NCBI RefSeq assembly: GCF_054482595.1
Contig: NZ_CM137008.1
DNA length: 64,000 nucleotides
Direction: 5' to 3' (one strand)
The position numbers and the translations under genes were made by a program. The notes under the pieces were generated by a model. The model saw nothing but the letters and a program-made list of their open reading frames with translations. It was not told where the DNA came from and ran no database searches. Numbering within the stretch: position 1 is the first letter of the stretch; each line of letters opens with the position of its first letter. Shown piece by piece: positions 1 through 36,613 of the stretch.

Positions 1-1
1 A

Positions 2-1327
2 ATTGTCGCCGACGAACGCACCAACAGTGTGATTGTCAGTGGTGACCCGGCCACGCGGGACAAAATGCGCCGCCTGATCCGTCGGCTGGACTCAGAAATG
101 GAGCGCAGCGGCAACAGCCAGGTTTTCTATCTCAAATACAGCAAAGCCGAAGATCTGGTCGATGTACTGAAGCAGGTCAGCGGCACGCTCACGGCGGCTA
201 AAGAAGAGGCGGAAGGCACGGTCGGTAGCGGGCGTGAGGTTGTCTCCATCGCCGCCAGCAAACACAGTAATGCCCTGATTGTAACCGCGCCGCAGGACAT
301 CATGCAGTCGCTGCAAAGCGTGATTGAACAACTGGATATTCGCCGTGCTCAGGTGCACGTCGAGGCGTTGATCGTGGAAGTGGCCGAAGGCAGTAATATC
401 AACTTCGGCGTGCAGTGGGCGTCGAAAGATGCCGGATTAATGCAGTTTGCTAATGGTACGCAGATCCCTATCGGTACGCTGGGCGCAGCCATTTCTCAGG
501 CGAAACCGCAGAAAGGCTCGACGGTGATCAGTGAAAACGGCGCAACCACCATTAATCCGGATACCAACGGCGATCTCTCCACGCTCGCCCAGCTTCTTTC
601 CGGCTTTAGCGGTACGGCGGTTGGCGTGGTGAAAGGCGACTGGATGGCGCTGGTACAGGCGGTTAAAAACGACTCCAGCTCGAACGTTCTCTCCACGCCG
701 AGCATCACCACGCTGGACAACCAGGAAGCCTTCTTCATGGTGGGTCAGGACGTTCCGGTATTAACCGGCTCTACCGTTGGCTCCAATAACAGCAATCCTT
801 TCAATACAGTAGAGAGGAAAAAAGTCGGCATCATGCTGAAAGTCACGCCGCAGATTAACGAAGGTAACGCGGTACAGATGGTGATTGAGCAGGAAGTCTC
901 GAAGGTGGAAGGACAGACCAGCCTCGACGTGGTGTTTGGTGAGCGCAAACTGAAGACCACCGTGCTGGCTAACGATGGTGAACTGATCGTGCTTGGCGGT
1001 CTGATGGACGACCAGGCGGGAGAAAGTGTGGCGAAAGTGCCGCTGCTGGGCGATATCCCGTTGATTGGTAACCTGTTTAAATCGACGGCGGATAAAAAAG
1101 AAAAACGTAACCTGATGGTGTTTATCCGTCCGACCATTCTGCGTGACGGTATGGCGGCAGACGGCGTGTCGCAGCGCAAATATAACTATATGCGCGCCGA
1201 ACAGATCTATCGCGATGAGCAAGGCTTAAGCCTGATGCCGCACACCGCGCAGCCGGTACTGCCAGCGCAAAACCAGGCCTTACCGCCGGAAGTACGTGCG
1301 TTCCTTAATGCCGGGAGAACGCGTTAA
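2..1327 (+). CDS. gspD: Type II secretion system secretin GspD, C-terminal part (5-prime partial; gene starts upstream of window)
   Basis: In-frame translation from position 2 ([21 protein letters not shown]...) matches the secretin C-domain; stop overlaps the gspE start at 1327. Confidence 0.9.
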
Positions 1328-2820
1328 TGGTGCCTGTAGCACAGGAAACCACCGCTAACACCGTGCGTCTGCCCTACAGTTTCAGCCGTCGGTTTAGCCT
1401 GGTGGCATGGTGCGAAGCGTCGCTGGAGATCCTCCATGTGCATCCGTTGTCGCTCTCTGTTTTGCAGGAGCTGCAGCGGGGGCTGAACGCGCCCTTTACG
1501 CTGCGGCAAATCGACGAGGCCGAATTTGAACAGCGACTGAATGCGGTCTGGCAGCGGGACTCTTCCGAGGCCCGCCAGCTAATGGAAGATCTCGGTTCTG
1601 CTGAGGACTTTTTTACTCTCGCTGAAGAACTGCCGGAAACGGAAGATCTGCTGGAAAGTGACGACGATGCGCCGATCATCAAACTGATCAACGCCATGCT
1701 GGCAGAGGCGATTAAAGAAGGCGCTTCGGATATTCACATCGAGACGTTTGAAAAGAGTCTGGTGATCCGTTTTCGCGTTGACGGCACATTACATGAAATG
1801 CTGCGCCCGGGGCGCAAACTGGCCTCGCTGCTGGTATCGCGTATCAAGGTGATGGCACGGCTGGATATCGCCGAAAAGCGCGTACCGCAGGATGGACGTA
1901 TTGCGCTGCTGCTGGGCGGTCGGGCGATTGACGTGCGTGTCTCCACCATGCCCTCCGCCTGGGGCGAGCGCGTGGTGCTGCGACTGCTGGACAAAAACCA
2001 GGCCCGCCTGACGCTGGAGCGTCTGGGGCTTAGCCAGCAACTGACCGCGCAGTTGCGCCAGCTGTTACACAAACCGCACGGCATCTTTCTGGTAACGGGG
2101 CCGACGGGTTCCGGAAAAAGCACCACGCTGTACGCCGGATTGCAGGAGCTGAACAACCATTCGCGCAATATTCTCACGGTTGAAGACCCCATCGAATACA
2201 TGATTGAAGGAATTGGTCAGACACAGGTTAACACCCGCGTCGGCATGACCTTTGCCCGTGGCCTGCGCGCGATTTTGCGTCAGGACCCGGATGTGGTGAT
2301 GGTCGGTGAAATCCGCGATACCGAAACCGCAGAAATCGCCGTCCAGGCTTCACTTACCGGACACCTGGTCCTTTCCACGCTGCATACCAACACGGCGGTG
2401 GGGGCGATCACGCGTTTGCAGGATATGGGCGTGGAGCCTTTCCTGCTCTCTTCCAGTCTGACGGGCGTGATGGCGCAGCGACTGGTTCGCACGCTGTGCC
2501 CCGACTGCCGCCAGCCCGCGCCTGCCACTGACGAAGAAAAACGCCTGCTGGGAATTACCGACGCGCGTACCGTCACTCTGTACCATCCGCAGGGCTGCCC
2601 CGCCTGTAATCATAAAGGTTTCCGCGGACGTACTGCCATCCATGAGCTGATCGTGGTGGATGCCACATTGCGTGATTTGATCCACCGTCAGGCCGGGGAA
2701 CTGGAGCTGGAACGTTATGTCCGGCAACACTCTGCGGGCATCCGCAGCAACGGCATTGAGAAAGTGCTCGCCGGAGAAACCTCTCTCGATGAAGTTCTGC
2801 GGGTAACCATGGAGGCGTAA
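1327..2820 (+). CDS. gspE: Type II secretion ATPase GspE
   Basis: 497 aa with Walker [11 protein letters not shown] and C-terminal CxxC...CxxC motifs; start overlaps gspD stop. Confidence 0.95.
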
Positions 2821-4043
2821 TGGCACTGTTTTACTATCAGGCGCTGGAGCGTAATGGTCGCAAAACCAAAGGCATGATTGAGGCGGATTCCGCGCGTCAT
2901 GCCCGCCAGTTGTTGCGCGGTAAAGATCTCATTCCCATGCACATTGAAGCCCGGATGAATGCTTCGGCAGGGGGAATGTTGCAGCGTCGGCGACACGCAC
3001 ATCGTCGCGTGGCGTCGGCAGATCTGGCGCTGTTCACGCGCCAACTGGCAACGCTGGTGCAGGCAGCAATGCCGCTGGAAACCTGCTTACAGGCGGTCAG
3101 TGAGCAAAGTGAAAAACTGCATGTAAAAAGCCTCGGAATGGCGCTGCGCAGCCGGATTCAGGAAGGTTACACCCTGTCGGACAGCCTGCGCGAACATCCC
3201 CGCGTCTTTGATTCCCTGTTTTGTTCGATGGTGGCTGCCGGAGAAAAATCCGGGCATCTCGACGTGGTGCTTAATCGCCTGGCGGATTACACCGAACAGC
3301 GACAGCGCCTGAAATCACGTCTATTGCAGGCCATGCTCTATCCGCTGGTTCTGCTGGTGGTGGCAACGGGCGTGGTCACTATTTTGCTGACGGCAGTGGT
3401 GCCGAAAATCATCGAACAGTTCGATCACCTCGGACACGCGCTGCCCGCCACCACCCGCGCGCTTATCGCCATGAGTGACGCGTTACAGGCCAGCGGCGTT
3501 TACTGGCTGGCGGGATTGCTGGCGCTTCTGGTGCTGGGGCAACGGCTACTCAAAAATCCTGTTATGCGCCTGCGCTGGGACAAAACCTTGCTGCGCCTGC
3601 CCGTGACAGGGCGTGTTGCGCGCGGACTGAATACGGCGCGGTTTTCCCGCACCTTAAGCATCCTCACCGCCAGCAGTGTTCCGCTGCTGGAAGGGATTCA
3701 GACCGCTGCCGCCGTGTCGGCAAATCGCTATGTCGAGCAACAACTGCTGCTGGCGGCAGATCGCGTCCGCGAAGGAAGCAGTCTGCGCGCTGCACTGGCG
3801 GAGTTGCACCTGTTCCCACCGATGATGCTGTACATGATCGCCTCCGGCGAACAGAGCGGCGAACTGGAAGCCATGCTTGAGCAGGCAGCGGTCAACCAGG
3901 AACGGGAATTTGATACCCAGGTGGGGCTGGCGTTAGGGCTGTTTGAACCGGCGCTGGTGGTGATGATGGCGGGCGTGGTGCTGTTTATCGTCATCGCCAT
4001 CCTCGAGCCGATGCTGCAACTGAACAATATGGTTGGAATGTAA
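2820..4043 (+). CDS. gspF: Type II secretion inner-membrane platform protein GspF
   Basis: 407 aa polytopic protein following gspE; start overlaps gspE stop. Confidence 0.92.
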   Translation: MALFYYQALERNGRKTKGMIEADSARHARQLLRGKDLIPMHIEARMNASAGGMLQRRRHAHRRVASADLALFTRQLATLVQAAMPLETCLQAVSEQSEKLHVKSLGMALRSRIQEGYTLSDSLREHPRVFDSLFCSMVAAGEKSGHLDVVLNRLADYTEQRQRLKSRLLQAMLYPLVLLVVATGVVTILLTAVVPKIIEQFDHLGHALPATTRALIAMSDALQASGVYWLAGLLALLVLGQRLLKNPVMRLRWDKTLLRLPVTGRVARGLNTARFSRTLSILTASSVPLLEGIQTAAAVSANRYVEQQLLLAADRVREGSSLRAALAELHLFPPMMLYMIASGEQSGELEAMLEQAAVNQEREFDTQVGLALGLFEPALVVMMAGVVLFIVIAILEPMLQLNNMVGM

Positions 4044-4059
4044 TTTACGGAGTTATCAC

Positions 4060-4515
4060 ATGAATTCGTTATCCCGCACACAAAAACCACGGGCAGGTTT
4101 TACCCTGCTGGAAGTGATGGTGGTGATTGTTATTCTTGGCGTCCTGGCAAGTCTGGTGGTGCCTAACCTGTTGGGCAACAAAGAGAAAGCGGATCGGCAA
4201 AAAGCCATCAGCGATATCGTGGCGCTGGAAAACGCACTGGATATGTACCGACTGGATAACGGGCGTTATCCAACTACCGAGCAGGGGCTTGAGGCGCTGA
4301 TCCAGCAGCCAGCCAATATGGCGGACGCCCGCAACTACCGTACTGGTGGATACATTAAACGACTGCCAAAGGATCCGTGGGGCAATGATTATCAGTATCT
4401 CAGCCCGGGTGAAAAAGGGCTGTTTGATGTTTATACCCTGGGGGCGGATGGTCAGGAAAACGGGGAAGGCGCTGGCGCAGATATCGGTAACTGGAATTTG
4501 CAGGAGTTTCAGTAA
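4060..4515 (+). CDS. gspG: Major pseudopilin GspG
   Basis: Prepilin-type N-terminus GFTLLEVMVVIVILGVLA; chosen ATG at 4060 has CGGAG 7 nt upstream (ORF track begins at 4033). Confidence 0.9.
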   Translation: MNSLSRTQKPRAGFTLLEVMVVIVILGVLASLVVPNLLGNKEKADRQKAISDIVALENALDMYRLDNGRYPTTEQGLEALIQQPANMADARNYRTGGYIKRLPKDPWGNDYQYLSPGEKGLFDVYTLGADGQENGEGAGADIGNWNLQEFQ

Positions 4516-4518
4516 GCA

Positions 4519-5082
4519 GTGCCTGAACGCGGATTCACACTTCTGGAAATCATGCTGGTGATTTTCCTTATCGGCCTTGCCAGTGCGGGCGTGGTACAGA
4601 CGTTTGCGACCGATTCTGAATCGCCCGCGAAAAAAGCGGCGCAGGATTTTCTGACTCGCTTTGCGCAGTTTAAAGACAGGGCAGTGATCGAAGGGCAGAC
4701 ACTCGGTGTACTAATCGACCCGCCGGGATACCAGTTTATGCAGCGTCGTCAGAGGCAGTGGTTGCCCGTTTCTGCGACCCGGTTATCGGCACAGGTTACG
4801 GTGCCGAAACAGGTGCAGATGCTGTTACAACCCGGAAGTGATATCTGGCAGAAGGAATATGCGCTGGAGCTGCAACGTCGTCGCCTGACGCTGCACGATA
4901 TTGAACTGGAGTTGCAAAAAGAGGCGAAAAAGAAGACGCCGCAGATCCGTTTTTCGCCTTTTGAACCCGCCACGCCGTTTACGCTGCGCTTCTACTCAGC
5001 GGCGCAAAACGCATGTTGGGCGGTAAAACTGGCACACGATGGCGCGTTATCCCTCAGTCAATGTGATGAGAGGATGCCATGA
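4519..5082 (+). CDS. gspH: Minor pseudopilin GspH
   Basis: GTG start; N-terminus GFTLLEIMLVIFLIGL prepilin motif; operon position. Confidence 0.85.
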   Translation: MPERGFTLLEIMLVIFLIGLASAGVVQTFATDSESPAKKAAQDFLTRFAQFKDRAVIEGQTLGVLIDPPGYQFMQRRQRQWLPVSATRLSAQVTVPKQVQMLLQPGSDIWQKEYALELQRRRLTLHDIELELQKEAKKKTPQIRFSPFEPATPFTLRFYSAAQNACWAVKLAHDGALSLSQCDERMP

Positions 5083-5450
5083 AGCGCGGATTTACCTTGC
5101 TGGAAGTGATGCTCGCACTGGCGATTTTTGCGCTGGCTGCCACGGCGGTGTTACAGATTGCCAGCGGTGCGCTGAGTAATCAGCACGTTCTTGAGGAGAA
5201 AACGGTAGCAGGCTGGGTGGCTGAAAACCAGACCGCGCTGCTCTACCTGATGACCCATGAACAACGGGCGGTCAGGCATCAGGGCGAGAGCGATATGGCT
5301 GGAAGCCGCTGGTACTGGCGAACCACACCGCAGAATACAGGCAACGCGCTGCTCCAGGCGGTGGATATTGAAGTCAGCCTTCACGAAGACTTTTCGTCGG
5401 TAATTCAGTCACGACGCGCCTGGTTTAGCGCCGTGGGAGGCCAACAGTGA
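5079..5450 (+). CDS. gspI: Minor pseudopilin GspI
   Basis: N-terminus MKRGFTLLEVMLALAIFALA; 4-bp overlap with gspH. Confidence 0.85.
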   Translation: MKRGFTLLEVMLALAIFALAATAVLQIASGALSNQHVLEEKTVAGWVAENQTALLYLMTHEQRAVRHQGESDMAGSRWYWRTTPQNTGNALLQAVDIEVSLHEDFSSVIQSRRAWFSAVGGQQ

Positions 5451-6052
5451 GAAGGACTCGCGCTGGTTTCACGTTACTGGAAATGCTGGTGGCGATAGCC
5501 ATTTTTGCCTCACTGGCACTGATGGCGCAGCAGGTGACAAACGGCGTCACACGTGTGAATAGTGCCGTCGCCGATCACGATCAAAAACTAAACCTCATGC
5601 AGCAAACGATGAGTTTTCTGACCCACGATCTGACACAAATGATGCCGCGTCCGGTAAGAGGCGATCAGGGCCAGCGTGAATCAGCGTTACTGGCGGGCGC
5701 TGGCGTGCTGGCGTCTGAGAGTGAAGGAATGCGCTTTGTACGCGGCGGCGTGGTTAATCCGTTGATGCGTCTGCCGCGCAGTAATCTGCTCACCGTCGGT
5801 TACCGCATTCATGACGGTTATCTCGAACGGTTAGCCTGGCCGCTGACCGACGCAGCAGGCAGCGTGAAGCCAACAACGCAAAAGTTGATTCCGGCGGATT
5901 CGCTCCGTTTGCAGTTCTACGACGGCACACGCTGGCAGGAGAGCTGGTCATCACTTCAGGCGATCCCAGTGGCGGTACGCATGACCCTGCACTCGCCGCA
6001 ATGGGGCGAGATTGAACGCATCTGGTTGTTACGCGGGCCGCAATTATCATGA
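5447..6052 (+). CDS. gspJ: Minor pseudopilin GspJ
   Basis: GTG start; N-terminus AGFTLLEMLVAIAIFASL; overlaps gspI stop. Confidence 0.85.
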   Translation: MRRTRAGFTLLEMLVAIAIFASLALMAQQVTNGVTRVNSAVADHDQKLNLMQQTMSFLTHDLTQMMPRPVRGDQGQRESALLAGAGVLASESEGMRFVRGGVVNPLMRLPRSNLLTVGYRIHDGYLERLAWPLTDAAGSVKPTTQKLIPADSLRLQFYDGTRWQESWSSLQAIPVAVRMTLHSPQWGEIERIWLLRGPQLS

Positions 6053-7026
6053 TCAGCTCACCACCAAAACGCGGAATGGCACTGGTCGTGGTGCTGGTAT
6101 TGCTGGCGGTCATGATGCTGGTAACCATCACGCTTTCCGGGCGGATGCAGCAACAACTTGGGCGAACGCGCAGCCAGCAGGAGTACCAGCAGGCGCTATG
6201 GTACAGCGCCAGTGCTGAAAGCCTGGCGTTGAGCGCGCTCAGTCTGAGTCTGAAAAATGAACAACGTGTGCATCTGGCACAGCCGTGGGCTTCTGGCCCT
6301 CGTTTTTTCCCACTGCCGCAGGGGCAAATCGCCGTCACTCTGCGTGACGCACAGGCCTGCTTTAACCTGAATGCCCTCGCTCAGCCGACGACGGCGTCGC
6401 GTCCGCTCGCGGTACAACAACTGATTGCCCTGATCACGCGCCTCGATGTGCCTGCTTATCGGGCCGAATTAATTGCTGAAAGCCTGTGGGAGTTTATTGA
6501 CGAAGGCCGCAGTGTGCAGACGCGTCTGGGGCGTGAAGACAGTGAGTATCTTGCCCGTTCGGTGCCGTTCTACGCCGCCAATCAACCGCTGGCTGATATC
6601 AGCGAGATGCGCGTGGTACAGGGAATGGACGCCGGACTTTATCAAAAACTGAAACCGCTGGTCTGTGCGCTGCCGATGACCCGCCAGCAAATCAACATCA
6701 ATACCTTAGACGTCACGCAAAGTGTGATTCTTGAGGCGCTGTTTGACCCGTGGTTAAGCCCTGTTCAGGCGCGGGCGTTATTACAACAACGTCCGGCGAA
6801 GGGCTGGGAAGATGTCGATCAGTTTCTTGCACAGCCGCTACTTGCTGACGTCGATGAGCGTACTAAAAAACAGCTAAAAACCGTCCTGAGCGTGGACAGC
6901 AATTACTTCTGGCTGCGTTCAGATATCACCGTGAATGAGATTGAACTGACGATGAACTCGTTAATTGTCCGCATGGGCCCACAACACTTTTCGGTTCTCT
7001 GGCATCAGACAGGAGAAAGTGAGTGA
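6049..7026 (+). CDS. gspK: Minor pseudopilin GspK
   Basis: 325 aa with N-terminal hydrophobic segment; operon position and overlap with gspJ. Confidence 0.85.
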   Translation: MISSPPKRGMALVVVLVLLAVMMLVTITLSGRMQQQLGRTRSQQEYQQALWYSASAESLALSALSLSLKNEQRVHLAQPWASGPRFFPLPQGQIAVTLRDAQACFNLNALAQPTTASRPLAVQQLIALITRLDVPAYRAELIAESLWEFIDEGRSVQTRLGREDSEYLARSVPFYAANQPLADISEMRVVQGMDAGLYQKLKPLVCALPMTRQQININTLDVTQSVILEALFDPWLSPVQARALLQQRPAKGWEDVDQFLAQPLLADVDERTKKQLKTVLSVDSNYFWLRSDITVNEIELTMNSLIVRMGPQHFSVLWHQTGESE

Positions 7027-8201
7027 GTTCCATGCTTGAGATTTTTTTCCCGCTTTGCGCCTCCGACACCATCCGCTGGCAGCGCCGTACACCCGACGTG
7101 GAGCACGGTATCTGGCCTGACGTTGCTGACGAACGTCTCCAGCAATGGCTGCAAACTGATGCGATTCGACTCTACATTCCCGGCGAATGGATCAGCGTCT
7201 GGCAGGTTGAACTGCCTGATATCCCCCGCAAGCAGATACCGACTATTCTGCCCGCCTTACTGGAAGAGGAGCTGAACCAGGATATCGACGAACTGCATTT
7301 TGCCGCGTTGAAAATCGACCAGCAACAGGCAACCGTGGCAGTGATTCACCAGCAGCATATGCGCAACATTGCGCAGTGGTTGCAGGCAAACGGCATCACC
7401 CGCGCCACCGTTGCACCGGACTGGATGTCCATGCCTTGTGGTTATATGGCTGGCGATGCACAGCGAATTATTTGCCGCATCGATGAATGCCGTGGATGGA
7501 GCGCCGGGCTGGCGCTGGCTCCGGTCATGTTCCGCGCCCAGCTCAATGAGCAGGATTTACCGCTTTCGCTAACTGTAGTCGGCATTGCACCGGAAGAACT
7601 ATCAGCATGGGCTGGCGCAGACGCTGAACGCCTGACCGTTACGGCTCTGCCAGCCATTACCACTTATGGCGAACCGGAAGGGAACCTGCTAACAGGGCCG
7701 TGGCAGCCTCGCGTCAGCTACCGAAAACAGTGGGCGCGCTGGCGAGTGATGATTCTGCCGATATTGCTGATTCTGGTTGCGCTGGCAGTGGAACGGGGCG
7801 TGACGTTATGGAGCGTCAGCGAACAGGTGGCGCAAAGCCGCGACCAGGCTGAGAAACAGTTCTTAACGTTGTTCCCGGAGCAGAAGCGGATTGTGAATTT
7901 ACGCTCTCAGGTGACGATGGCGCTGAAAAAATATCGCCCACAGGCCGACGATACCCGGCTGCTCGCCGAGTTGTCAGCGATAGCCAGCACCCTGAAATCA
8001 GCGTCACTTTCCGACATCGAAATGTGTGGTTTCACCTTTGATCAAAAACGCCAGACGCTTCACCTCCAGTTGCGGGCAGCAAACTTTGCCAGTTTCGACA
8101 AACTGCGTAGTGCACTGGCAACCGATTATGTTGTGCAACAGGACGCGTTACAGAAAGAGGGTGATGCGGTTTCCGGCGGCGTAATGTTGCGGAGGAAATA
8201 A
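7023..8201 (+). CDS. gspL: Type II secretion protein GspL
   Basis: 392 aa with a single central TM (WARWRVMILPILLILVALAV); GTG start overlapping gspK stop. Confidence 0.85.
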   Translation: MSSMLEIFFPLCASDTIRWQRRTPDVEHGIWPDVADERLQQWLQTDAIRLYIPGEWISVWQVELPDIPRKQIPTILPALLEEELNQDIDELHFAALKIDQQQATVAVIHQQHMRNIAQWLQANGITRATVAPDWMSMPCGYMAGDAQRIICRIDECRGWSAGLALAPVMFRAQLNEQDLPLSLTVVGIAPEELSAWAGADAERLTVTALPAITTYGEPEGNLLTGPWQPRVSYRKQWARWRVMILPILLILVALAVERGVTLWSVSEQVAQSRDQAEKQFLTLFPEQKRIVNLRSQVTMALKKYRPQADDTRLLAELSAIASTLKSASLSDIEMCGFTFDQKRQTLHLQLRAANFASFDKLRSALATDYVVQQDALQKEGDAVSGGVMLRRK

Positions 8202-8202
8202 C

Positions 8203-8739
8203 ATGTTACGCGATAAATTTATTCACTATTTTCAGCAATGGCGTGAACGCCAGTTAAGCCGTGGCGAACACTGGCTGGCACAACACCTGGCGGGGCGTTC
8301 TCCGCGTGAAAAGGGCATGTTACTGGCAGCGGTGGTGTTCCTGTTTAGCGTCGGATATTACGTCCTCATCTGGCAGCCGTTGAGCGAACGGATAGAACAA
8401 CAGGAGACGATGTTGCAGCAGCTGGTGGCAATGAACACCCGACTGAAGAACGCCGCGCCGGATATTATTGCAGCGCGAAAATCTGCCACAACAACGCCTG
8501 CGCAGGTATCGCGGGTCATCAGTGACAGTGCTTCCGCGCACTCGGTGGTCATCAGGCGGATAGCCGAGCGTGGGGAGAATATTCAGGTCTGGATAGAACC
8601 TGTGGTGTTTAATGACCTGCTGAAATGGTTAAACGCACTGGATGAAAAATATGCGCTGCGGGTGACACAAATTGATGTCAGTGCTGCTGAGAAGCCTGGG
8701 ATGGTGAATGTGCAGCGGCTGGAGTTTGGACGGGGGTAA
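8203..8739 (+). CDS. gspM: Type II secretion protein GspM
   Basis: 178 aa with N-terminal TM (MLLAAVVFLFSVGYYVLIW); last gene of the operon. Confidence 0.85.
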   Translation: MLRDKFIHYFQQWRERQLSRGEHWLAQHLAGRSPREKGMLLAAVVFLFSVGYYVLIWQPLSERIEQQETMLQQLVAMNTRLKNAAPDIIAARKSATTTPAQVSRVISDSASAHSVVIRRIAERGENIQVWIEPVVFNDLLKWLNALDEKYALRVTQIDVSAAEKPGMVNVQRLEFGRG

Positions 8740-8765
8740 AGTATCAGGAGATTAATATCAATAAA

Positions 8766-8794
8766 ATTACTCTCGTTAACGTGGCGAGAGTAAT
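8766..8794 (+). terminator. Perfect 10-bp inverted repeat (ATTACTCTCG...CGAGAGTAAT) just downstream of gspM; possible terminator
   Basis: Hairpin read directly from sequence; the T-run lies about 20 nt downstream, so terminator function is uncertain. Confidence 0.3.
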
Positions 8795-8840
8795 TCCCCC
8801 AGACTTTATAAGCTAATTTTTTTCGTGAAGGTTATTGTCA

Positions 8841-8875
8841 GATCCAAAAGCAAAAACCCGCCTTGTGGGCGGGTT
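8841..8875 (-). terminator. Rho-independent terminator (minus-strand sense), likely the ancestral tRNA-Phe terminator
   Basis: Stem AACCCGCC/GGCGGGTT with TTGT loop, followed on the minus strand by TTTTTGCTTTTGG. Confidence 0.55.
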
Positions 8876-8887
8876 CTTAAGAATTAG

Positions 8888-8909
8888 TGGTGCCGGACTC
8901 GGAATCGAA
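8888..8909 (-). repeat. 22-nt remnant of a tRNA-Phe 3-prime end (TTCGATTCCGAGTCCGGCACCA); candidate att repeat of a pheV-type island
   Basis: Minus strand carries the T-loop and acceptor 3-prime strand ending in CCA but no tRNA body; identity to tRNA-Phe is from memory (one G fewer than I recall). Confidence 0.6.
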
Positions 8910-9019
8910 GATTTCTTTTATCATATTGATATTAATATAATTTGTTTGGTTTGATTAAAAATGTACCCTCAATTATACCCGCAGTCCCTTTTGATATCGA
9001 AAGGGAATCACACTCGGGA

Positions 9020-9865
9020 TCAGGCTGAGAGCACAGAAGGAAAGTGCCTGGCTATTATATCGTTAATTCTGTCAATCAGCTCCAGCCTTTTGAAAGTGAT
9101 GTGTGCAGATCCCTTCTTAAAGTATTTAATGATGAACATCTCATCTTCATAGCGTCCTTTACCCTGAACGGATTGTATGTGGTCATCCAGATTAATGGTG
9201 ATATTCCCCCGGTTGTCGGGGATCGGTTTACCGCTGAGCAGATGCAACATTCTTTCCAGGTCAGCCAGGCGATCTGCCTGCATTCCACTGATAAGATGAA
9301 ATCCCCACTGGTCCCACCTCACCAGATTGTTGACGATAATTTTACTGCCAAATTTACAGGGTGAGTTGGTTTTGTAATCCCAGCTCAGCCCTTTGAAGAC
9401 GTTGAGCACTCCCCGCTCAAACACTTCATCCTTATTCTGGTGCAGTTGTTCAAATGTGCTCAGAATGTTCGCTTCACTGATTTCCGGAAAATTATCATAT
9501 TCCAGTGACCTGTACCATGTGTCCCGGGTCTGCGCATCCATCAGACTCTGCATCCCGGAACGTTGCATCAGGTCACGCCAGATTTCGCGATCGAGATTGC
9601 GTGTGATGGCTTTCATTGCGGTTTCCGGTTTCTCCATCAGCCAGCAGCCGCAGCGAAAATCCTGTTTCATCGCCCAGTCCAGGGCGGTTTTACCTCCAAT
9701 ACTTTCTGTCAGTACTGAGATTTCTGCCAGTTGCCGGATAAGTGTGTCGATTTGCAGCAGCGCACTCTTTCGTACAGCCAGAATGTGGCGGATACTGGTT
9801 GAGCAGATAACGTCCGTATGCCCGTTGACCAGTTCCGGGCGGGAGATTGTGATATCTGACATCAT
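9020..9865 (-). CDS. Conserved island protein of unknown function (possibly DUF4942-type)
   Basis: 281-aa ORF immediately downstream of the toxin-antitoxin module; the minus-strand terminator at 8841-8875 follows it. Family assignment is from memory only. Confidence 0.55.
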   Translation of the reverse strand: MMSDITISRPELVNGHTDVICSTSIRHILAVRKSALLQIDTLIRQLAEISVLTESIGGKTALDWAMKQDFRCGCWLMEKPETAMKAITRNLDREIWRDLMQRSGMQSLMDAQTRDTWYRSLEYDNFPEISEANILSTFEQLHQNKDEVFERGVLNVFKGLSWDYKTNSPCKFGSKIIVNNLVRWDQWGFHLISGMQADRLADLERMLHLLSGKPIPDNRGNITINLDDHIQSVQGKGRYEDEMFIIKYFKKGSAHITFKRLELIDRINDIIARHFPSVLSA

Positions 9866-9946
9866 CGTTTTTCCTTTTGGTTTATAAACGAAAACGCCAG
9901 CCGTATTCAGGCTGGCGTCAGTGGAATGAAGTCTGGTGAGTGAGAT

Positions 9947-10144
9947 TCACCGGTTCTGGTGCAGAAGCGGCAGTTGGCGCAGGGTATGGATATCCTCCCT
10001 CGCCTGTTCAATACAGGACAACAGTGCTGCCGAATCCGTTTTATCCTCATTGTTGTCAAAGATAATTCCGGATTCGCAGTCGATATTGTCCTGCAGCCAC
10101 GCAATCAGAATATCCAGTGCGGTTTCCGTGGTTAATGATTTCAT
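9947..10144 (-). CDS. Small hypothetical protein (65 aa)
   Basis: ATG at 10144 preceded by AGGAG; sits between the yeeW-like ORF and the 281-aa ORF. Confidence 0.45.
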   Translation of the reverse strand: MKSLTTETALDILIAWLQDNIDCESGIIFDNNEDKTDSAALLSCIEQAREDIHTLRQLPLLHQNR

Positions 10145-10155
10145 GTTGCTCCTGG

Positions 10156-10644
10156 TTACCAGTTGAAAGTGGGTAAACCCGGCAGGCATTCAGCGCTGGC
10201 ATCCAGATGAATGAGACTGACACCATAACGTCGGGTAAGTGTGACAACCAGACGGCGGAACGTTTTTGACAGCCCCAGGCGCTTAAGCCGCAGAACCGGA
10301 TACGGCCACGCATCAGTACGTAACAGATAGCCGCTGCCGGTAAAATGAATCCATTCTGATTCACCGAAGTCACTGGTCTGGTGTGACAGCGAGTACAGCC
10401 AGGCGTTGTCCGTTTCCGTGATATGTGCGGTACTGCAGTGTATACCGGTCAGGACAGCAAATGGTGGCATGCAGTCTGTTGAGGCCCGGTCAGATGCATC
10501 AACAACACGAAGGGAGTGGCCATTATCACAGACCACGTTAATCAGTTCAGCGAGATTAACACCATCGACGTCAACGACAATGCGTCCCATGTTCAGTGCC
10601 TGCACGTTAATGCTGTCGGCTTCCAGCGTCAGGGCCAGTTTCAT
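10156..10644 (-). CDS. YeeW-like hypothetical protein downstream of the CbtA-family toxin
   Basis: 162-aa ORF whose start overlaps the cbtA-like stop by 4 bp (ATGA), suggesting translational coupling. Confidence 0.55.
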   Translation of the reverse strand: MKLALTLEADSINVQALNMGRIVVDVDGVNLAELINVVCDNGHSLRVVDASDRASTDCMPPFAVLTGIHCSTAHITETDNAWLYSLSHQTSDFGESEWIHFTGSGYLLRTDAWPYPVLRLKRLGLSKTFRRLVVTLTRRYGVSLIHLDASAECLPGLPTFNW

Positions 10645-11018
10645 TGTTTCGCCTCCGGATGTTTCCCCTGGGTAATGTTATTTACCGTTCTGTAGTTATC
10701 GCGGGTCATCAGGCCGGTTGCCCTGCGAGCCCGGAGAATATCAATACTGTTTATTAACTGAGAGCGGGTACAGGCGCTGAATCCCGGCTGGTCGGTACGT
10801 ATCAGTGCGTATTTTTCAACGAGAAAGTTCACCGTATCACACAGTGAAATGCCAGCTTCAATATGCTGCTCAATCACACGTTCATCGGCGAACGGTGTGT
10901 CATTCAGTGTGAGGCCATAGTGCTGGTCCAGCAACCGGGACAGCAGTGTCTGCCAGATGGTGACGGGAGGCGGGCAGCGCGATGCCTCCCGTACATGCGT
11001 GTCGGGTAATGTTTTCAT
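10641..11018 (-). CDS. cbtA: CbtA/YeeV/YkfI/YpjF-family toxin
   Basis: 125 aa; sequence (MKTLPDTHVREASRCPPPVTIWQTLLSRLLDQHYGLTLNDTPFADE...) closely resembles CbtA as I recall it. Confidence 0.85.
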   Translation of the reverse strand: MKTLPDTHVREASRCPPPVTIWQTLLSRLLDQHYGLTLNDTPFADERVIEQHIEAGISLCDTVNFLVEKYALIRTDQPGFSACTRSQLINSIDILRARRATGLMTRDNYRTVNNITQGKHPEAKQ

Positions 11019-11107
11019 ACTGAAGATTTTCCTGATATGCAGAGATGAAAAATGGAAAAGTGGCGTGGTGAAAACACCAGGCCGGAGCAGAAGGTTATTC
11101 CGGAGAG

Positions 11108-11476
11108 TTAATTTTTCATTTCGGGTGTCGGATAAACAGCCAGATAAACGTAACCACAGGAGCCGAGGGTGTCGGCTTCACAGGTCAGCCCCTTCGCATA
11201 CAGTGTCACGGTATGCTGATGGCGGGGATTCAGTTCACCGCTGGTGAGCATGAGCTCCAGTTGTTTCATCAGCAGCGGAAAGGCCTGGTCCAGATGGTAC
11301 GCATCCGCGTCGCTGAACCGGCCTCTGATACCGGCGCGGTCGGCAAGGTAATGCAACTGATTGCCCTCCTGCACCAGACGGGCGCCGAAACAGGGCGTCA
11401 CGGTGCAGGGTAGTCCCCACCAGGGACGGTCATGATTGTCATCGGGATGCGTTGTCCCGGAGAGTGTGTCTGACAC
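11108..11476 (-). CDS. cbeA: CbeA/YeeU/YfjZ-family antitoxin
   Basis: GTG start at 11476 with GAGGA upstream gives 122 aa (VSDTLSGTTHPDDNHDRPWWGLPCTVTPCFGARLVQEG...), matching YeeU-type length and sequence. Confidence 0.85.
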   Translation of the reverse strand: MSDTLSGTTHPDDNHDRPWWGLPCTVTPCFGARLVQEGNQLHYLADRAGIRGRFSDADAYHLDQAFPLLMKQLELMLTSGELNPRHQHTVTLYAKGLTCEADTLGSCGYVYLAVYPTPEMKN

Positions 11477-11525
11477 GATAAAATCCTCACAGAAAATCGG
11501 TGAATGATAGTTTAACGATGACGGG

Positions 11526-12170
11526 TCAGCCGGCGCGCAGACCGGCTTCGGTGAAGGTGTATTCGTTGATGAGTAGGGCCTCATCCACAGCGGCGTCTGA
11601 GGTCAGCCAGTCGTACTCGTTTTCCAGTTGACGGTACAACCAGAAGGCCAGGCCGCGCAGGGCTTCGCTGACAGCGGCTTCCGCATCGGTTGTCATAGTC
11701 TGACCAGTCGGACTGTTCTGGGTGACGGTGATATCCATGCTGTACGGATGGCAGTAGCGTCCCCTGTGGTGGATTTCAGCCTGCAGTTGCCAGAAGTTAC
11801 GCTTTTGCACCGCCTGCAGGGCATCCGCGATACGATGAAGTTCATGCTCCTGTGGGGCATACTTCCGGATTCTTCTGACTGTCGCTGGCTGCCAGTGCCA
11901 GCGTCCTTCAAAACAGGCTCCGTCCCCCTGGCTGCAGAATCCGCTGAACCAGATGCTCGGCTCCTCCATAAACCTGCCGTTGCTGAGCCGGAAAACGCGC
12001 TGGCGGAGGTCAATTCCGAAAATGCCACAGACCTCCCTGAAGTCTTCATACACGTTTTCATACCAGTTGCTGTCAGCATGATGCTGACGGTACCCGTCGC
12101 GGGCTTTTTCCTGTGCGGTGGAGGATAGCTCATTCAGTGTATACACGGTGGTGGTGATAATTCTGTTCAT
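11526..12170 (-). CDS. Hypothetical protein (214 aa) between yeeT-like and cbeA-like genes
   Basis: Long ORF with protein-like composition (WFSGFCSQGDGACFEGRWHW); not recognised; atypical position for this module. Confidence 0.5.
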   Translation of the reverse strand: MNRIITTTVYTLNELSSTAQEKARDGYRQHHADSNWYENVYEDFREVCGIFGIDLRQRVFRLSNGRFMEEPSIWFSGFCSQGDGACFEGRWHWQPATVRRIRKYAPQEHELHRIADALQAVQKRNFWQLQAEIHHRGRYCHPYSMDITVTQNSPTGQTMTTDAEAAVSEALRGLAFWLYRQLENEYDWLTSDAAVDEALLINEYTFTEAGLRAG

Positions 12171-12188
12171 CAGAATTCCCTTCCTGGC

Positions 12189-12410
12189 TCAGTTCAGGGT
12201 GACGCTCATCAGCCGGACATACGGGCCAAAACTGTCCTTACGGCGTTCTGCAAACACGGCCAGTACACCGGGAATATCCTGCACTTCACGACCGGTATAC
12301 GCTTCAGTGCTGCCGTGCCAGCGGTATTTGCCGGTGCAGAACGGAAAAAGACGGGATGCAGGATGCTGTTGGTGAATACGCATGGCTTCACCACGGGTGA
12401 TGATTTTCAT
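12189..12410 (-). CDS. yeeT: YeeT-like DUF987 protein
   Basis: 73 aa (MKIITRGEAMRIHQQHPASRLFPFCTGKYRWHG...), near-identical to YeeT as recalled. Confidence 0.8.
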   Translation of the reverse strand: MKIITRGEAMRIHQQHPASRLFPFCTGKYRWHGSTEAYTGREVQDIPGVLAVFAERRKDSFGPYVRLMSVTLN

Positions 12411-12478
12411 AGTGGGATACCTCTGAAGACAGAAGATAAAAGTGAAAACAGGTGTGATGTGGTTGTGACGGTGACGGG

Positions 12479-12955
12479 TTAAAGCAGACCATGTTCGGCA
12501 AAGGAGAAAACCTGGCTGCCACCGACTATCAGATGGTCCGGCACCCGGATATCCACCAGGCCCAGTGCCTGTACCAGACGTTCCGTGATAAGGCGGTCTG
12601 CCTTGCTGGGTGTGACTTCACCGGACGGGTGATTGTGTGTCAGCACCACAGCAGCGGCATTGTGATACAGGGCGCGTTTAATCACTTCACGGGGATGGAC
12701 TTCCGTGCGGTTGATGGTGCCGGTGAAGAGGGTTTCACCGGCAATCAGCTGATTCTGGTTGTTCAGATACAGCACCCGGAACTCTTCACGCTCCAGTCCC
12801 GCCATGTTCAGAATCAGCCATTCTCGTGCCGCACGGGTGGAGGTGAAGGCCACGCCGGGTTCATGAAGATGGCGGTCCAGGGTTTTCAGGGCCCGTTGAA
12901 TGAGGCTGCGCTCGCCGGGCGTCATCTCTCCGGGCAGAAAGGAAAGCTGTTGCAT
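12479..12955 (-). CDS. yeeS: RadC-like JAB-domain protein (YeeS/YfjY/YkfG family)
   Basis: JAMM-type motif HNHPSGEVTPSKAD; preferred ATG at 12955 has GGAG upstream (ORF track begins at 12970). Confidence 0.85.
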   Translation of the reverse strand: MQQLSFLPGEMTPGERSLIQRALKTLDRHLHEPGVAFTSTRAAREWLILNMAGLEREEFRVLYLNNQNQLIAGETLFTGTINRTEVHPREVIKRALYHNAAAVVLTHNHPSGEVTPSKADRLITERLVQALGLVDIRVPDHLIVGGSQVFSFAEHGLL

Positions 12956-12970
12956 TGTACTTCTCTCCAT

Positions 12971-13456
12971 TCAGTCGATGATGCGCATAATGGCGCTGCA
13001 TTCCGGATGCTGCAGGGCGTAATCCCGTAGACGGTAATAATGAACCGTCATGGCATAATTCTCTGTACGACAGGCGTGATGGCTGTACGTCATCAGACAG
13101 GCGGCAATACCAGCAGCTTCCGGGCCCATTTCAGCGCGGTTACCATTCATGGCATTGAACAGCACCCAGGTTTCTCCATCATCTTCATCCGGTTCGGGCG
13201 CCATAAATGCGCCGCCGTTATTCAGGGTGTACAGATTCCAGATACCACCGCAGTAGTCTTCACACAGACGGTCCATCCAGCCGAAGACACGGGGCTCCAG
13301 GGTCACCCACTGTGGAATGAGGCCAAAGTGCTGCGGCCAGAAGCTGATACGTTGTTCATCAGGGACGGGAGTAGCAACCAGTTGGGGCTGGTTATTCCCT
13401 GGTGCAGTAGTTACGGAAACAGAAGGTGTGGTGGAGCTATGCGAAAAGGTTGTCAT
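12971..13456 (-). CDS. Antirestriction protein (YfjX/YafX, KlcA/ArdB-like)
   Basis: 161-aa ORF immediately upstream of the radC-like gene in the conserved CP4-type order; family from memory. Confidence 0.7.
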   Translation of the reverse strand: MTTFSHSSTTPSVSVTTAPGNNQPQLVATPVPDEQRISFWPQHFGLIPQWVTLEPRVFGWMDRLCEDYCGGIWNLYTLNNGGAFMAPEPDEDDGETWVLFNAMNGNRAEMGPEAAGIAACLMTYSHHACRTENYAMTVHYYRLRDYALQHPECSAIMRIID

Positions 13457-13547
13457 GAGATTATTCCTTATAAAAAGTAAATGAATGGAAGAATGCCTGA
13501 GGACTGGTACAGACGTGAGTCAGGGCTGCACTTTCAGGGAAACAGCA

Positions 13548-14366
13548 TCAGCGCATGCTCTCCAGCAGCGTTTCTGCCATCACCCACAATGCGCGATTGA
13601 GCTTAATGTCCGTGTCGATGCTGTGAATGGCCCGGGTGTGGATACGTTTTCCTTTAGCGCTGCGACCGGAAATCCCGCCTTTCAGCATATTCTCCTGGAT
13701 GGTCTGATAAGCACTCCACAGGTCCTTACCGTAATCCTCCCGGCGTCGTGGCGTCAGAATGTCGGCGGTGGTGACGGGCTGATGTTCGTCACCATAACGG
13801 TAAGTCAGTGCCGCCTGTGCCAGCGCCTGACGTGCCGGTGGCGGCAGAATCAGCGACTGCATGGCATCACGCTTTTCCTCAATCCGGTCAAACACGCCCA
13901 CCACCTCGTAAGCCCCTTCGATAACTTTCTCCACTACATTTCCCCGGTGTGGAACACGCACTTCCCCCAGAGACTGACCACAGACGCAGCCGTTCTGGCA
14001 GACGAATCTGAAGTAACCCGGTAGCATCTGGTAGCTGGAGGTACCGTCATGGGAGTTGAGCAGAATAATTTCAGGGACATGTTGTCCGGTTATCTCCCCG
14101 TCACGCCGCAGACGCAGCATGTGTTTGGTGTATTCCCGGCGGCTCTGGTCGCGCACGCGGGTCTGGCAGGCAAAGAACGGCTGAAAGCCTTCCTGCTGCA
14201 GATTTTCCAGGACGGTGATAGTGGGAATGTACGCATAGTGTTCACTTCGGGAGGTATGTCGGTTTTCCCCAAAAATACTCGGTACATGGCGCATCAGTTC
14301 TTCGTGTGTCAGCGGACGGTCACGGCGTATCTGATTTACATGACCAAAACGACTGGCTAATTGCAT
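13548..14366 (-). CDS. DUF932-family protein (YafZ/YfjQ-like)
   Basis: 272-aa ORF at the position and size of YafZ/YfjQ in CP4-type modules. Confidence 0.7.
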   Translation of the reverse strand: MQLASRFGHVNQIRRDRPLTHEELMRHVPSIFGENRHTSRSEHYAYIPTITVLENLQQEGFQPFFACQTRVRDQSRREYTKHMLRLRRDGEITGQHVPEIILLNSHDGTSSYQMLPGYFRFVCQNGCVCGQSLGEVRVPHRGNVVEKVIEGAYEVVGVFDRIEEKRDAMQSLILPPPARQALAQAALTYRYGDEHQPVTTADILTPRRREDYGKDLWSAYQTIQENMLKGGISGRSAKGKRIHTRAIHSIDTDIKLNRALWVMAETLLESMR

Positions 14367-14455
14367 ACTTTGCTCCTTATGAATGAGTTAGCGGTATAAA
14401 TGAAAAGGCCGCGTCTCCCGGAGAAGACGCGGCCTGATGGATGAAATGAAGACGT

Positions 14456-14725
14456 TTATTGCCTGAGAATTCCCTCGCTGGCGAGATACGGGTTTAGCTG
14501 TTTTCCGGCATCAGGTTCAAAATTCCAGCAGCGCCAGCGTAGCTGGCCTTCAGCGTTGCGGATCACCAGCCGGAAATGCGTTCCCTGGTCATCTTCAATA
14601 AGCACATTAAGGTAAGCCGTTGTGACGGCAAGAGCCTGGTTGCGTGAGAAAGGGCCTTCGGGCAATAAACGTGATGTACAACCTGGCATATCTGTTGCTC
14701 CCTGTAAGTAAAAGGCCCCGGTCAT
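14456..14725 (-). CDS. Small hypothetical protein (89 aa) between antigen 43 and the DUF932 gene
   Basis: ORF with protein-like composition; not recognised. Confidence 0.4.
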
Positions 14726-14759
14726 GATGACCGGGGCCTGAAGGGGAGTGACCTGATTA

Positions 14760-17606
14760 TCAGAAAGTCACATTCAGTGTGGCCTGACCGTTATAACCTT
14801 CAGCGCTGCTGCCGCTGACACTGTGGGCATAACCGGCCTGAACGCCCAGGGTGATATTTTCCCGGACACGGGCTTCCAGTCCGGCCTGCAGGTCCAGTGT
14901 CGTGCCATTCCGGGACGGTGAGAACGTCATGTTACTGCCGGCTGCGGCTGTACCCATGCTCATGTCCCCCCGGGAGCTGAAGGTGCGGATAACAGAAGGC
15001 TGTACCCACCAGTTCACCTGCAGTTCACGCACACTGTGTTTGGCACTGTCGCGCAGGGTGTCACGGGATGAGGTGCCTTTACCAAAGTTCATATCGTTGT
15101 GGCTGCCCAGACGGAAGCCGGCACGCACATGTTGTGCACTGCCATGCCCGAACTTCACATAACCGGCGTTATCCTGGCCGTCATCCAGGGAGAGTCCCTG
15201 CCAGGTGTACTGCAGTTGCGGCTCCAGCATCAGATTGTCAGTGATACTGAAGGGCAGACCGGTTTCCAGTGAGCCCAGCCAGCCCCAGCCCCGGGCGCGG
15301 AAGTCGTTATTGTCCGATGACGCTTTCATGCTGTGGCGGGTTCCCTGTGCCACAATGTCAGCCCACAGGCCGGAGGACGTGTGTGTCAGATTCAGGTATC
15401 CGCCCAGGCTGCCGGCATCATCCCGGACCGTGCCGGCGCGGGAACCGTCATCATCCTTAACATCAACGGAAGAATGGCCTGCAGCACCATATACCCCTGT
15501 CGTCAGAGACATACCGGCAACCTCTGTTCTCAGCAGGTCACCCTCCAGACGGACGAAGCCATAGCTGCCGCTGCTTTCCGGCGTGGCTCCACGGGCAATA
15601 CCGCCGTTGTTATCGTGACCGAGATGACCGCCCTGAATGCTGAGACGGACGCTGTTATTTTCACCGTTTACACCGGTCTGATGGCTGCGGGAGCCTGCCA
15701 GAATCCGGTCATAGTCCATTGCCTGTGTCAACATGGATGTATACAGGGGGACTTCAGCACGATAAGCATTTTCACTGCGCAGGTACCAGTCTTCATCGCT
15801 GTCACGGTTCAGGGTGTAGTTAAAGGCGCCGGCCTGAAGCGGGCGACTCAGAGCAAATGCACCTTCTTCTGTGGTGGCACCATTCTGTGCATCCACAACC
15901 CGGATACCCTGTCCGGAGGTTGCCACCCCGAGGTTACTGTTTCCGACATTTGTAAACGCAAGCCAGGTTTTGCCGGTTGCCTGACCACCATTAATCACCA
16001 GCTGGTCAGAGGCATTGCTGCCATCAAGGCGAACACGCATATTGATGGTGCCACCCTGACCGGTGAGGTTACTGGTGGTCAGTTTATGGAACGTTACCGG
16101 GGCGTCGCCTTTTGCAACAGCACGGCTCAGGACGGCATCCTGTGTCGTCTGATTATCAAAGCGAATCTCCCCTGCGTTAACAATATCGCCGGTACTGACC
16201 ACATCACCATTCAGTACCATGCTGGCGCCTTTACTGAGCTGTGTTCTGCCACTCAGACTTCCCCCGGCAGCCAGCGTCAGTGTTCCACGATGTCCGACAG
16301 TGGTGTTGCCAGCCTGTCCCCCGGCATTAACCGTAAAGCTGCCGCCATTTTCCAGCAGCAGGCCGCTGGCCTGACCGGATATGCCATCAATACTGAACTT
16401 ACCGCTGGCATTGGTCCCCTCAACAGTGGCACCACTGTCTGCAATCAGGGCACCACCGGATGTCATGGTGACACCTGTCGCCTTACCACCGGCAGACACT
16501 GCCAGGGTACCGCCGTCATCCACCCGTGTTTTCTGCGCTGAATGACCCTCCAGTACATCCAGACGACCGCCGGACTCCAGAACAACACCGTCAGCCTTAC
16601 CGTTTTCCACCGCGAAATTGCCCAGACGGTTGCTGCCGGTGACGGTTGCCGCCGTACTGGTGACCAGTGCGCCTCCCTGCTTCAGGGTGACATTCGTGGC
16701 TGTACCACCGGCGTTCACCTGCAGTTTGCCTTTCTGGTTAACGGTGGTGAAATCCGCCAGACCACCTTCCTTGATAATCTGCCAGCCGTCACTGTTCACA
16801 ACAGTGTCAGACGTTGTACCTCCGTTGTGCACATACTGGTACCCCCCATTCAGCGTGGTATCCAGTGCGTGACCATGTACCGTCTGGTCGCCGCCGGCAT
16901 AAACCACCGTGGTGTTTGCCACTCCGGTGGCTACCACAATCTGACGACCATTTTTATTGATGGTGGTACGTACGGCATCTCCGCGAACAAACTGTCCGGT
17001 ATCAGCATTTTCCGCATCCGGTCCTCCTTCTGCGCCGGTATTCACAACCGTGTCGGTTGCCATTGCGCCGGATTTGACGGCCTGCCAGCCCTTCTCATTA
17101 ATGACGGTACCCGTTGCAATCCCGCCTTCATGTACCCACTGCTCACCGCCGTTCAGAGTGGTGTTCACTGCCTGCCCCTGAAGGCTCTGTCCTCCTCCGG
17201 CACTGATAACCGTGTCTGAAACGCTTCCTCCGGCATTCACTCTCTGAAGACCACCACCGGTGACAGTAGTGTTGTTGGCGATACCGCCATTTTGTATCCA
17301 TTGTCCGCCGGTATTGGCCTCGTTATCCGGCCCATACTCCAGCCCGGTACTGATGGTCATTCCGTTGGCCGTACCGAGGACAATCTGGTTGTCATGATTT
17401 GTCAGTGTTCCGTCGTTCACGGTTTCTCCCGCCTGTACAACCGTGTCAGCAGCCAGTGCCGGGACTGATGTGACAGCAGCAAGAGACAGTGCAACCGCCA
17501 CACCGGCGCGTTTTCCCCGTGAGCGGGCCAGTTCGGAGGCCACCACCAGGGTGCCCGTAATGTGATTCCATACCAGCCTGTAGCTGGTGTTCAGATGTCG
17601 TTTCAT
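14760..17606 (-). CDS. flu: Antigen 43 (Ag43) self-associating autotransporter adhesin
   Basis: Start at ATG 17606 ([28 protein letters not shown]...); repetitive passenger domain and C-terminal beta-barrel ending ...GQATLNVTF. Confidence 0.92.
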
Positions 17607-17823
17607 CAGCTTTTCCTTACAGAGGGTGAATAAAAAAGCCGGTACCCACAAATGTGGATACCGGCAGGTACAAAACAGCATGGTCAGATAAAGTGGTTTT
17701 TCCCGGGCATAAATGCTTCCCTTCTCTCATCCGCCAGAGAAGTATCAGTCCGTTGTGTGCAATTCCGTTCTGCATGATGAAGAGATTCAGCTGCCTTTTC
17801 GCAGACCATTAACCACTATAAAC

Positions 17824-17859
17824 GATCGATAGTAACGATCGATACCTGTTTTATCGATC
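17824..17859. promoter_or_regulatory. Three clustered GATC sites upstream of the Ag43 gene (candidate Dam/OxyR phase-variation switch)
   Basis: GATC at 17824-17827, 17837-17840 and 17856-17859, about 220-250 bp upstream of the Ag43 start. Confidence 0.7.
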
Positions 17860-17977
17860 GTTTTATTCTATTAACGACAAGGCGGTCACGCAAGAGAAAC
17901 AGGAGGAGTATGAGGGGTTTGTGTCATGTTTTCAGTTGGTTAACGTAATGTTATCAGGCATTTCCCTGGCAGACTGT

Positions 17978-18850
17978 TCAGAAGAAAATCCAGTTCCATA
18001 CAGCGCGGGCAACAGAGACCACCGTGTCACGGACGGCACGCAGAACCGTGCGTGCAACAGAGGCAATACAGACGCTCTCCGCTGTGTCAAATATCCGGTC
18101 CACCGCACCGGTAAACTGTTCACGGGCCTGAGACCGGACAGATTCCGTGCGCAGCTCGTCCTGCAGGCGGGTCATCAGGGGACTGGCGGCATGGTCGGGA
18201 AGCGCTGTCATGAGCGCACTGACCAGCGTATCCAGTTCCCAGCCGGTGCGGGCCGATACGGCCACAACCGGATGTACGGGCCGGAACAGACGGAATACCG
18301 CCTCCGTTTTTTCGCGAATATTCTGTGCCTGTGCGGGAGAAGGCTGAATGCCGGCCATATCCCATTCATGGCAGGGCTCCGTTTTGTCGGCCTGCGTCAC
18401 CACAAACAGCACCTGCTGATGTCCCCGGTGCAGGATGTGTCGCCAGAAATACTCATCCACAGACAGGGCACGGTCATCGGCTTTAATCAGCCACAGTACC
18501 AGGTCAAGTTCAGGCAGAATGTCACGGTACAGGGCTTCATACTCTGCATCCCTGTCCCGGCTCTCGCCCACCCCGGGCAGGTCAGTGATAATCATACTGT
18601 GACCGTGGCCACTCAGACGGAAGCGCCGCACTTCCCGGGTGCCGGCGTGAACATCACTGACCGGGGTGACCTCCCCCTGAAACAGTGCATTACAGAGTGA
18701 GGATTTACCGGCCCCGCTTTTCCCCATAATGCCAATCACGGGTTCGTGACTGGTGAGTTTGCGCAGATGTTCCAGGATGTGACGGGAAAGTGAGTAAGGC
18801 AGGGAGGAGAGCGGTTTTTCAATTGCCTCAATGGCATCAGACGGATTCAT
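17978..18850 (-). CDS. yeeP: YeeP/YkfA/YfjP-family GTPase
   Basis: P-loop GKSGAGKSSL and DLPG motif; preferred ATG at 18850 (ORF track begins at 18913). Confidence 0.8.
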   Translation of the reverse strand: MNPSDAIEAIEKPLSSLPYSLSRHILEHLRKLTSHEPVIGIMGKSGAGKSSLCNALFQGEVTPVSDVHAGTREVRRFRLSGHGHSMIITDLPGVGESRDRDAEYEALYRDILPELDLVLWLIKADDRALSVDEYFWRHILHRGHQQVLFVVTQADKTEPCHEWDMAGIQPSPAQAQNIREKTEAVFRLFRPVHPVVAVSARTGWELDTLVSALMTALPDHAASPLMTRLQDELRTESVRSQAREQFTGAVDRIFDTAESVCIASVARTVLRAVRDTVVSVARAVWNWIFF

Positions 18851-36585: not shown

Positions 36586-36613
36586 GTCAAATTAATCCTT
36601 CATTCTAAGTTGC

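Follow-up and report, generated by a model that had tools for sequence, protein, structure and literature searches.

The window, by which we mean the whole 64-kb stretch of DNA analysed here, begins with a T2SS-beta flank (positions 1-8839). Its gspM/yghD gene is core chromosome bordering the pheV attachment site, and positions 1-8900 are 100% identical to at least 14 complete genomes. The stretch that links this flank to the DNA on its right, 8841-8909, has the sequence AGATCCAAAAGCAAAAACCCGCCTTGTGGGCGGGTTCTTAAGAATTAG-TGGTGCCGGACTCGGAATCGAA. Coordinates for the island content listed below were mapped from the annotation of strain GTEN_97 (NZ_CP113493.1), and those of the yee/flu module also from the RefSeq annotation of strain LWY24 and the ORF list. 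From left to right, the features are:

8203-8739, plus strand: gspM/yghD, final gene of the T2SS-beta operon (ORF list; RefSeq annotation of the identical LWY24 and Santai sequence)
8740-8887, minus strand: native pheV-downstream sequence (attB right flank), read as displaced to the far end of the island; 148/148 against K-12 MG1655
8851-8879, minus strand: pheV rho-independent terminator, AAGAACCCGCC...GGCGGGTT plus a TTTTTGCTTTTGG tail, in the same place as after K-12 pheV
8888-8909, minus strand: tRNA-Phe 3'-end remnant of 22 nt (the 23-nt repeat less one G), assigned as attR; equal to the published GI-pheV attR
8910-64000: genomic island, assigned as the distal 55.1 kb and continuing past the window; 99.99% identical to GTEN_97 and absent from K-12
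9020-18850, minus strand: conserved distal yee/flu (CP4-44-like) module
26380-27730: IS3-family insertion sequence (BLAST against GTEN_97)
33855-35474: ISEc38
35860-46746: GntR regulator, amidohydrolase, MFS transporter, citCDEFXG and acnB-like gene
51415-56076: malX-like and malY-like genes and an enterotoxin-like gene
58349-61996: amidohydrolase, dcuC and LysR regulator
62104-63753: IS66 remnants
63754-63849, minus strand: AlpA-family gene fragment abutting the IS66 remnants

Examination of the 22-mer at 8888-8909, TTCGATTCCGAGTCCGGCACCA on the minus strand, revealed that it is the terminal 23 nt of tRNA-Phe without one G of a GGG run. The tRNA-Phe terminus used for this comparison, TTCGATTCCGAGTCCGGGCACCA, is the same in K-12 pheV, in LWY24 and in both GTEN_97 copies, and the tRNA-Phe genes of these strains are identical as a whole. 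The initial annotation had described a 22-nt copy of a tRNA-Phe 3' end on the minus strand with no tRNA body attached, and had proposed its alignment to pheV. The copy is there, one G short: the alignment gave 22/23 with one gap, an imperfect copy, and ARAGORN detected no tRNA gene in the 64 kb. When up to 3 mismatches were permitted the 22-mer still had a single site in the window, and dinucleotide shuffles gave a chance expectation of 0 matches. Further copies of the tRNA-Phe repeat, which would mark tandem islands, were found neither in the window nor in the remaining part of the GTEN_97 island.

Downstream of the tRNA remnant lies a terminator-like hairpin (8851-8879) that the terminator scan called on the minus strand only. 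It has a GC-rich stem of 10-12 bp followed by TTTTTGCTTTTGG on that strand, and folding of the RNA gave -24.2 kcal/mol (z = -3.3). The 148 nt that separate the remnant from gspM/yghD match the K-12 MG1655 sequence just past pheV at 148/148 positions, terminator included, which identifies the hairpin as the native pheV terminator and not that of gspM. The terminator reported beside the remnant is thus present, while its implied ownership by gspM has to be given up, since the signature is confined to the minus strand and is pheV's own. An Rfam scan of 8600-9200 returned nothing above the gathering score; sub-threshold matches of P9, the rnk leader and SraB on the terminator hairpin were dismissed as chance. 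A perfect 11-bp inverted repeat, AATTACTCTCG/CGAGAGTAATT, is also located at 8765-8795, 26 nt past the gspM stop codon. The repeat belongs to the backbone of K-12. It may act as the true terminator of gspM, or else be bidirectional.

The gene order in K-12 MG1655 is speC, yqgA, pheV and then yghD (gspM) on the opposite strand, which confirms the adjacency of yghD and pheV given for K-12 in the initial annotation. K-12 has none of the DNA right of 8909 and, given the 148/148 identity of the flank with its terminator, represents the empty site. The comparison with island-free strains suggested at the outset could be extended to 5426 complete E. coli genomes, 1530 of which have yqgA, pheV, the terminator and yghD contiguous and so display the empty site. 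The junction type of the window (yghD, the remnant, and the DUF4942 gene or module) occurs in 592 genomes. The inserted DNA thus occupies the site expected of a GI-pheV, at the 3' end of pheV in the yqgA-pheV/yghD interval, and is missing from island-free strains.

Two relatives show what lies at the other end of such an insertion. The LWY24 junction is 100% identical to the window over 8600-9300, and its island of 83,654 bp leads, by RefSeq annotation, to a tyrosine integrase of 394 aa and then to an intact tRNA-Phe and yqgA. Its interior departs from the window after approximately 11 kb, and the idea that the window is LWY24 was rejected on the grounds that high identity is limited to 7570-11025 and 12146-14670. 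GTEN_97 is 99.99% identical over window positions 8840-64000, a relocated IS3 apart. Its island measures 82,512 bp and extends 27,421 bp past the position where the window ends; an integrase of 421 aa and an intact tRNA-Phe stand at that far end. The integrases of the two strains match the integrase domain model PRK09692 of NCBIfam strongly (E values of 7e-75 and 3e-92), both matches falling below the curated cutoff of the model. The flank of the proximal tRNA differs between the two, being yqgA in LWY24 and dicD (yjdC) plus dsbD, the pheU neighbourhood, in GTEN_97.

Islands of this kind have been catalogued from complete E. coli genomes by Nhu et al. in 2024 (PMC11537424). In that work a GI-pheV is defined as running from pheV and intP4 through attR, "the remnant of pheV-tRNA", with intP4 adjoining pheV at the end opposite attR. 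Table 1 of the catalogue lists the attR TTCGATTCCGAGTCCGG-CACCA in 20/41 GI-pheV, carried among others by APEC O1, S88, ED1a, H10407, 12009, CB9615, 55989, the O104:H4 outbreak strains, UMNK88, 042, 536, 11128 and REL606 (PMC11537424). The window 22-mer equals this published sequence exactly, deletion included. Direct repeats of the pheV 3' end at GI-pheV attR sites are 19-23 bp long, and the remnant retains 22/23 nt. The mosaic composition agrees as well, with a yee/flu module, copies or remnants of IS3, ISL3 and IS66, and a GC content that varies between 37% and 59% along the island; modules of the yee (CP4-44-related) and flu types have been described for GI-pheV (PMC11537424). The feature is therefore an ordinary one, already published to the nucleotide.

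Because the original right flank of pheV is joined here to only the last 22 nt of the gene, the geometry is that of a distal (attR) end. We are confident that 8888-8909 is the right-hand attachment scar (attR) at the distal end of an E. coli pheV island, and it is very likely that this island runs rightward from 8910 past the end of the window. The initial annotation had likewise read the remnant as an att direct repeat left by a tRNA-Phe-targeting integrative island, a proposal that the 22-mer, the identity of the flank to K-12 and the integrase and tRNA ends of the relatives all support. Its extent, given as everything from about 8.9 kb rightward, holds from 8910, where the sequence becomes one that K-12 lacks and that GTEN_97 shares almost without difference.

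What has been observed directly are the identities of sequence, the empty site and the ends of the relatives' islands with their integrase and tRNA; how integration took place, and what the far end looks like in the genome of the window itself, are inferred. A tyrosine integrase would have recombined the attP of the element with the final ~23 nt of pheV, rebuilding the tRNA gene at the integrase end (attL) and leaving the displaced copy of the 3' end joined to the original pheV terminator (8851-8879) and yghD/gspM. The remnant would be under no selection, and carries the 1-nt deletion; the integrase and an intact tRNA-Phe would be expected some tens of kb past position 64000. P4-family integrases have this layout: a tyrosine integrase lies beside a tRNA, the far end is marked by a short repeat of that tRNA's 3' terminus, and the tRNA is reconstituted upon integration. 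Satellite phage P4 and CP4-type elements thus resemble the one in the window in their tRNA-adjacent integrase, 3'-end repeat and rebuilding of the tRNA, but the window's element is a large, decayed, non-phage island. Among excision and transfer functions none was identified in the window, where there is only the AlpA fragment at 63754-63849.

The claim that the proximal end is lost or rearranged finds no support in this assignment. The remnant is the distal attR, and the tRNA and integrase belong at the opposite end of an island that exceeds the 55 kb present in the window; both are intact in LWY24 and GTEN_97, at distances of 83.7 kb and 82.5 kb. ARAGORN and the mapped annotation place no intP4 beside an intact pheV in the window, as they do not place any integrase or intact tRNA there, and the pairing of the attR with an attL of the same genome falls beyond it. 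Since 55 kb of a ~80-kb island falls within the window, the missing integrase and tRNA are expected and are not evidence of loss; the integrase end most probably does no more than lie outside the window. A rearrangement in the window's genome is possible in view of GTEN_97, and nothing inside the window shows one.

The GTEN_97 chromosome bears on how the island came to this site. Its first junction runs from the pheV terminator through the 22-mer attR, the island, the integrase and tRNA-Phe to dicD (yjdC) and dsbD. The reciprocal junction consists of speC, yqgA, tRNA-Phe, an integrase, two tandem islands, a DUF4942 gene, an integrase fragment and cadC, and it is only at this other locus, with its tandem islands, that an internal degenerate tRNA-Phe repeat (2 mismatches) is found. 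With both reciprocal junctions present, the origin-containing arc from pheV to pheU is inverted in GTEN_97. In Santai (O157:H16) the same island is found at pheU beside cadC with a perfect 23-nt repeat. There are 0 mismatches over the first 2100 nt past that repeat, and a 24-kb query (8000-32000) matched with 99.8% identity at 91% coverage. The pheV locus of Santai, 100% identical to window 1-8900, is occupied by another island, whose repeat is 19 nt long and which has a ParDE pair. This GI-pheU thus has near-identical island DNA and a tRNA-Phe 3'-end repeat of the same kind, but differs in its perfect 23-mer, its pheU-type terminator and the P4-like integrase fragment before cadC, where the window has the pheV terminator and yghD.

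It is conceivable, therefore, that the junction is a hybrid, with a genuine attR and pheV terminator now joined to a pheU island by rearrangement, a proposal we would entertain while leaning somewhat against it. Homologous recombination between a pheV and a pheU island in their shared distal yee module would have inverted the origin-containing arc, and at the far end one would then find the integrase, pheU, yjdC and dsbD instead of pheV and yqgA. Exactly such a layout, with both reciprocal products, is what GTEN_97 displays, and Santai supplies the same island at pheU with its perfect repeat. The ~1.9 kb at 8910-10853, which the pheV island of LWY24 and the pheU island of Santai have in identical form, offers perfect homology for the crossover; for the same reason a crossover there leaves no trace and cannot be located. 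[quoted passage not shown] Set against this, the far junction lies past the end of the window, and the window and GTEN_97 are not simply one lineage. Their T2SS-beta flanks (window 1-8839) are just 95.3% identical, and a K5 kps locus, which the window lacks, separates yghD from the pheV terminator in GTEN_97. In addition, an identical window would arise without any inversion through ordinary pheV integration, or through a double crossover that followed horizontal transfer.

Compared with GTEN_97, identity is 95.3% in the flank and 99.99% in the island, and the flank finds 100% identity in Santai-like strains, where this island is at pheU; the two therefore have different histories. No match to the whole window, combining a Santai-like flank with a GTEN_97-like island, was found among the 5426 complete E. 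coli genomes. The island may have reached the pheV junction by homologous recombination or inversion and not by integrase action at pheV; the window cannot tell apart pheV integration, island replacement by double crossover and a GTEN_97-like inversion. That the window's own genome has an origin-spanning pheV/pheU inversion like that of GTEN_97, with the attR paired to an integrase-pheU end, we regard as a real possibility to which we give a little less than even weight. If true, a near-identical 55-kb island beside a flank that differs by ~5% would represent a recent exchange of island or flank by homologous recombination, not by integrase.

We do not believe that the remnant is a truncated pheV, that is, a gene whose 5' 53 nt were destroyed by a deletion or insertion, leaving no pheV at the locus and no duplicated att; we consider this very improbable. 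Absence of a tRNA body and an integrase from the 64 kb would fit, and decay of island ends does occur, as one-third of GI-pheV are without one repeat (PMC11537424). However, the breakpoint would have to fall exactly at the 23-nt segment that serves as the direct repeat, the same 22-mer junction is found in genomes that keep an intact tRNA-Phe at the opposite end of the island, and on the right, the side expected of an attR, there follows the conserved distal island module, oriented as it usually is. A chance resemblance beside a plain gspM terminator, which has nothing except proximity to gspM in its favour, is ruled out for practical purposes by the 0 matches expected from shuffles, the 148/148 identity of the context to the K-12 pheV downstream region, the minus-strand-only terminator signature and the separate hairpin at 8765-8795 directly past the gspM stop codon.

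With the remnant taken as the distal attR of a pheV island, its closest counterparts are the GI-pheV inserted at the same pheV site by yghD in 536 (PAI V), APEC O1, S88, ED1a, H10407, 55989, 042 and REL606. These share the identical attR with its 1-nt deletion, the yee/flu module and mosaic, IS-rich content, and islands that retain attR fall in the 50-110 kb size class, as here. The cargo differs: the window carries citrate lyase and acnB-like genes, malX/malY-like and enterotoxin-like genes, and dcuC with an amidohydrolase, which is none of the pathotype-typical sets given in the catalogue (PMC11537424). H10407 has the same attR and an intact T2SS-beta, whereas the cargo of its pheV island (fec and others) is different. 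The occurrence of the same 1-nt attR deletion across phylogroups with different cargo suggests that the distal junction was not remade with each integration. This junction looks old and shared, and the interior looks to have been turned over by gain, loss and recombination of modules. The deletion can thus serve as a marker that the distal junction and the yee module travel together, by inheritance or exchange, as the interior is reshaped, in accord with the published modular evolution of GI-pheV (PMC11537424). For annotation, the left boundary of the island is fixed at 8909/8910, the hairpin is assigned to pheV and not to gspM, and annotators should seek the integrase and tRNA past the window and not call the island decapitated. 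Outside correct annotation the importance is slight.

The island content in the window begins with the yee/flu module, which encodes DUF4942, DUF957 and DUF5983 proteins, a CbtA/CbeA toxin-antitoxin pair, DUF987, RadC/JAB, an antirestriction protein, DUF932, DUF905, Ag43 and a YeeP-like GTPase. The IS3 element at 26380-27730 splits a hypothetical gene (ORF 25719-26435). In GTEN_97 the copy lies 775 bp to the left in reversed orientation, which suggests recent movement of the IS. The citrate-lyase set citCDEFXG at 35860-46746 is complete and accompanied by the acnB-like aconitase gene; the region looks like a second, horizontally acquired organic-acid utilisation cluster. Further right, 51415-56076 contains a malX-like PTS gene and a MalY/PatB-like gene, together with an ORF of 637 aa that bears the annotation "enterotoxin" in GTEN_97; the region resembles the classical malX marker region of pathogenicity islands. 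The AlpA fragment may be the relic of an internal island boundary, in which case the island would be composite; no internal tRNA-Phe repeat accompanies it, either in the window or in what remains of the GTEN_97 island. Two AT-rich segments within the island, 20001-22000 and 58001-62000 (GC 0.37-0.41), mark separately acquired modules. In GTEN_97 the "pheU terminator" hairpin ACGGACCTCCACGGAGGTCCGT lies between tRNA-Phe and the full-length integrase, and in Santai it lies beside the integrase fragment, before cadC. From this placement, a P4-like island appears to carry the terminator that pheU uses.
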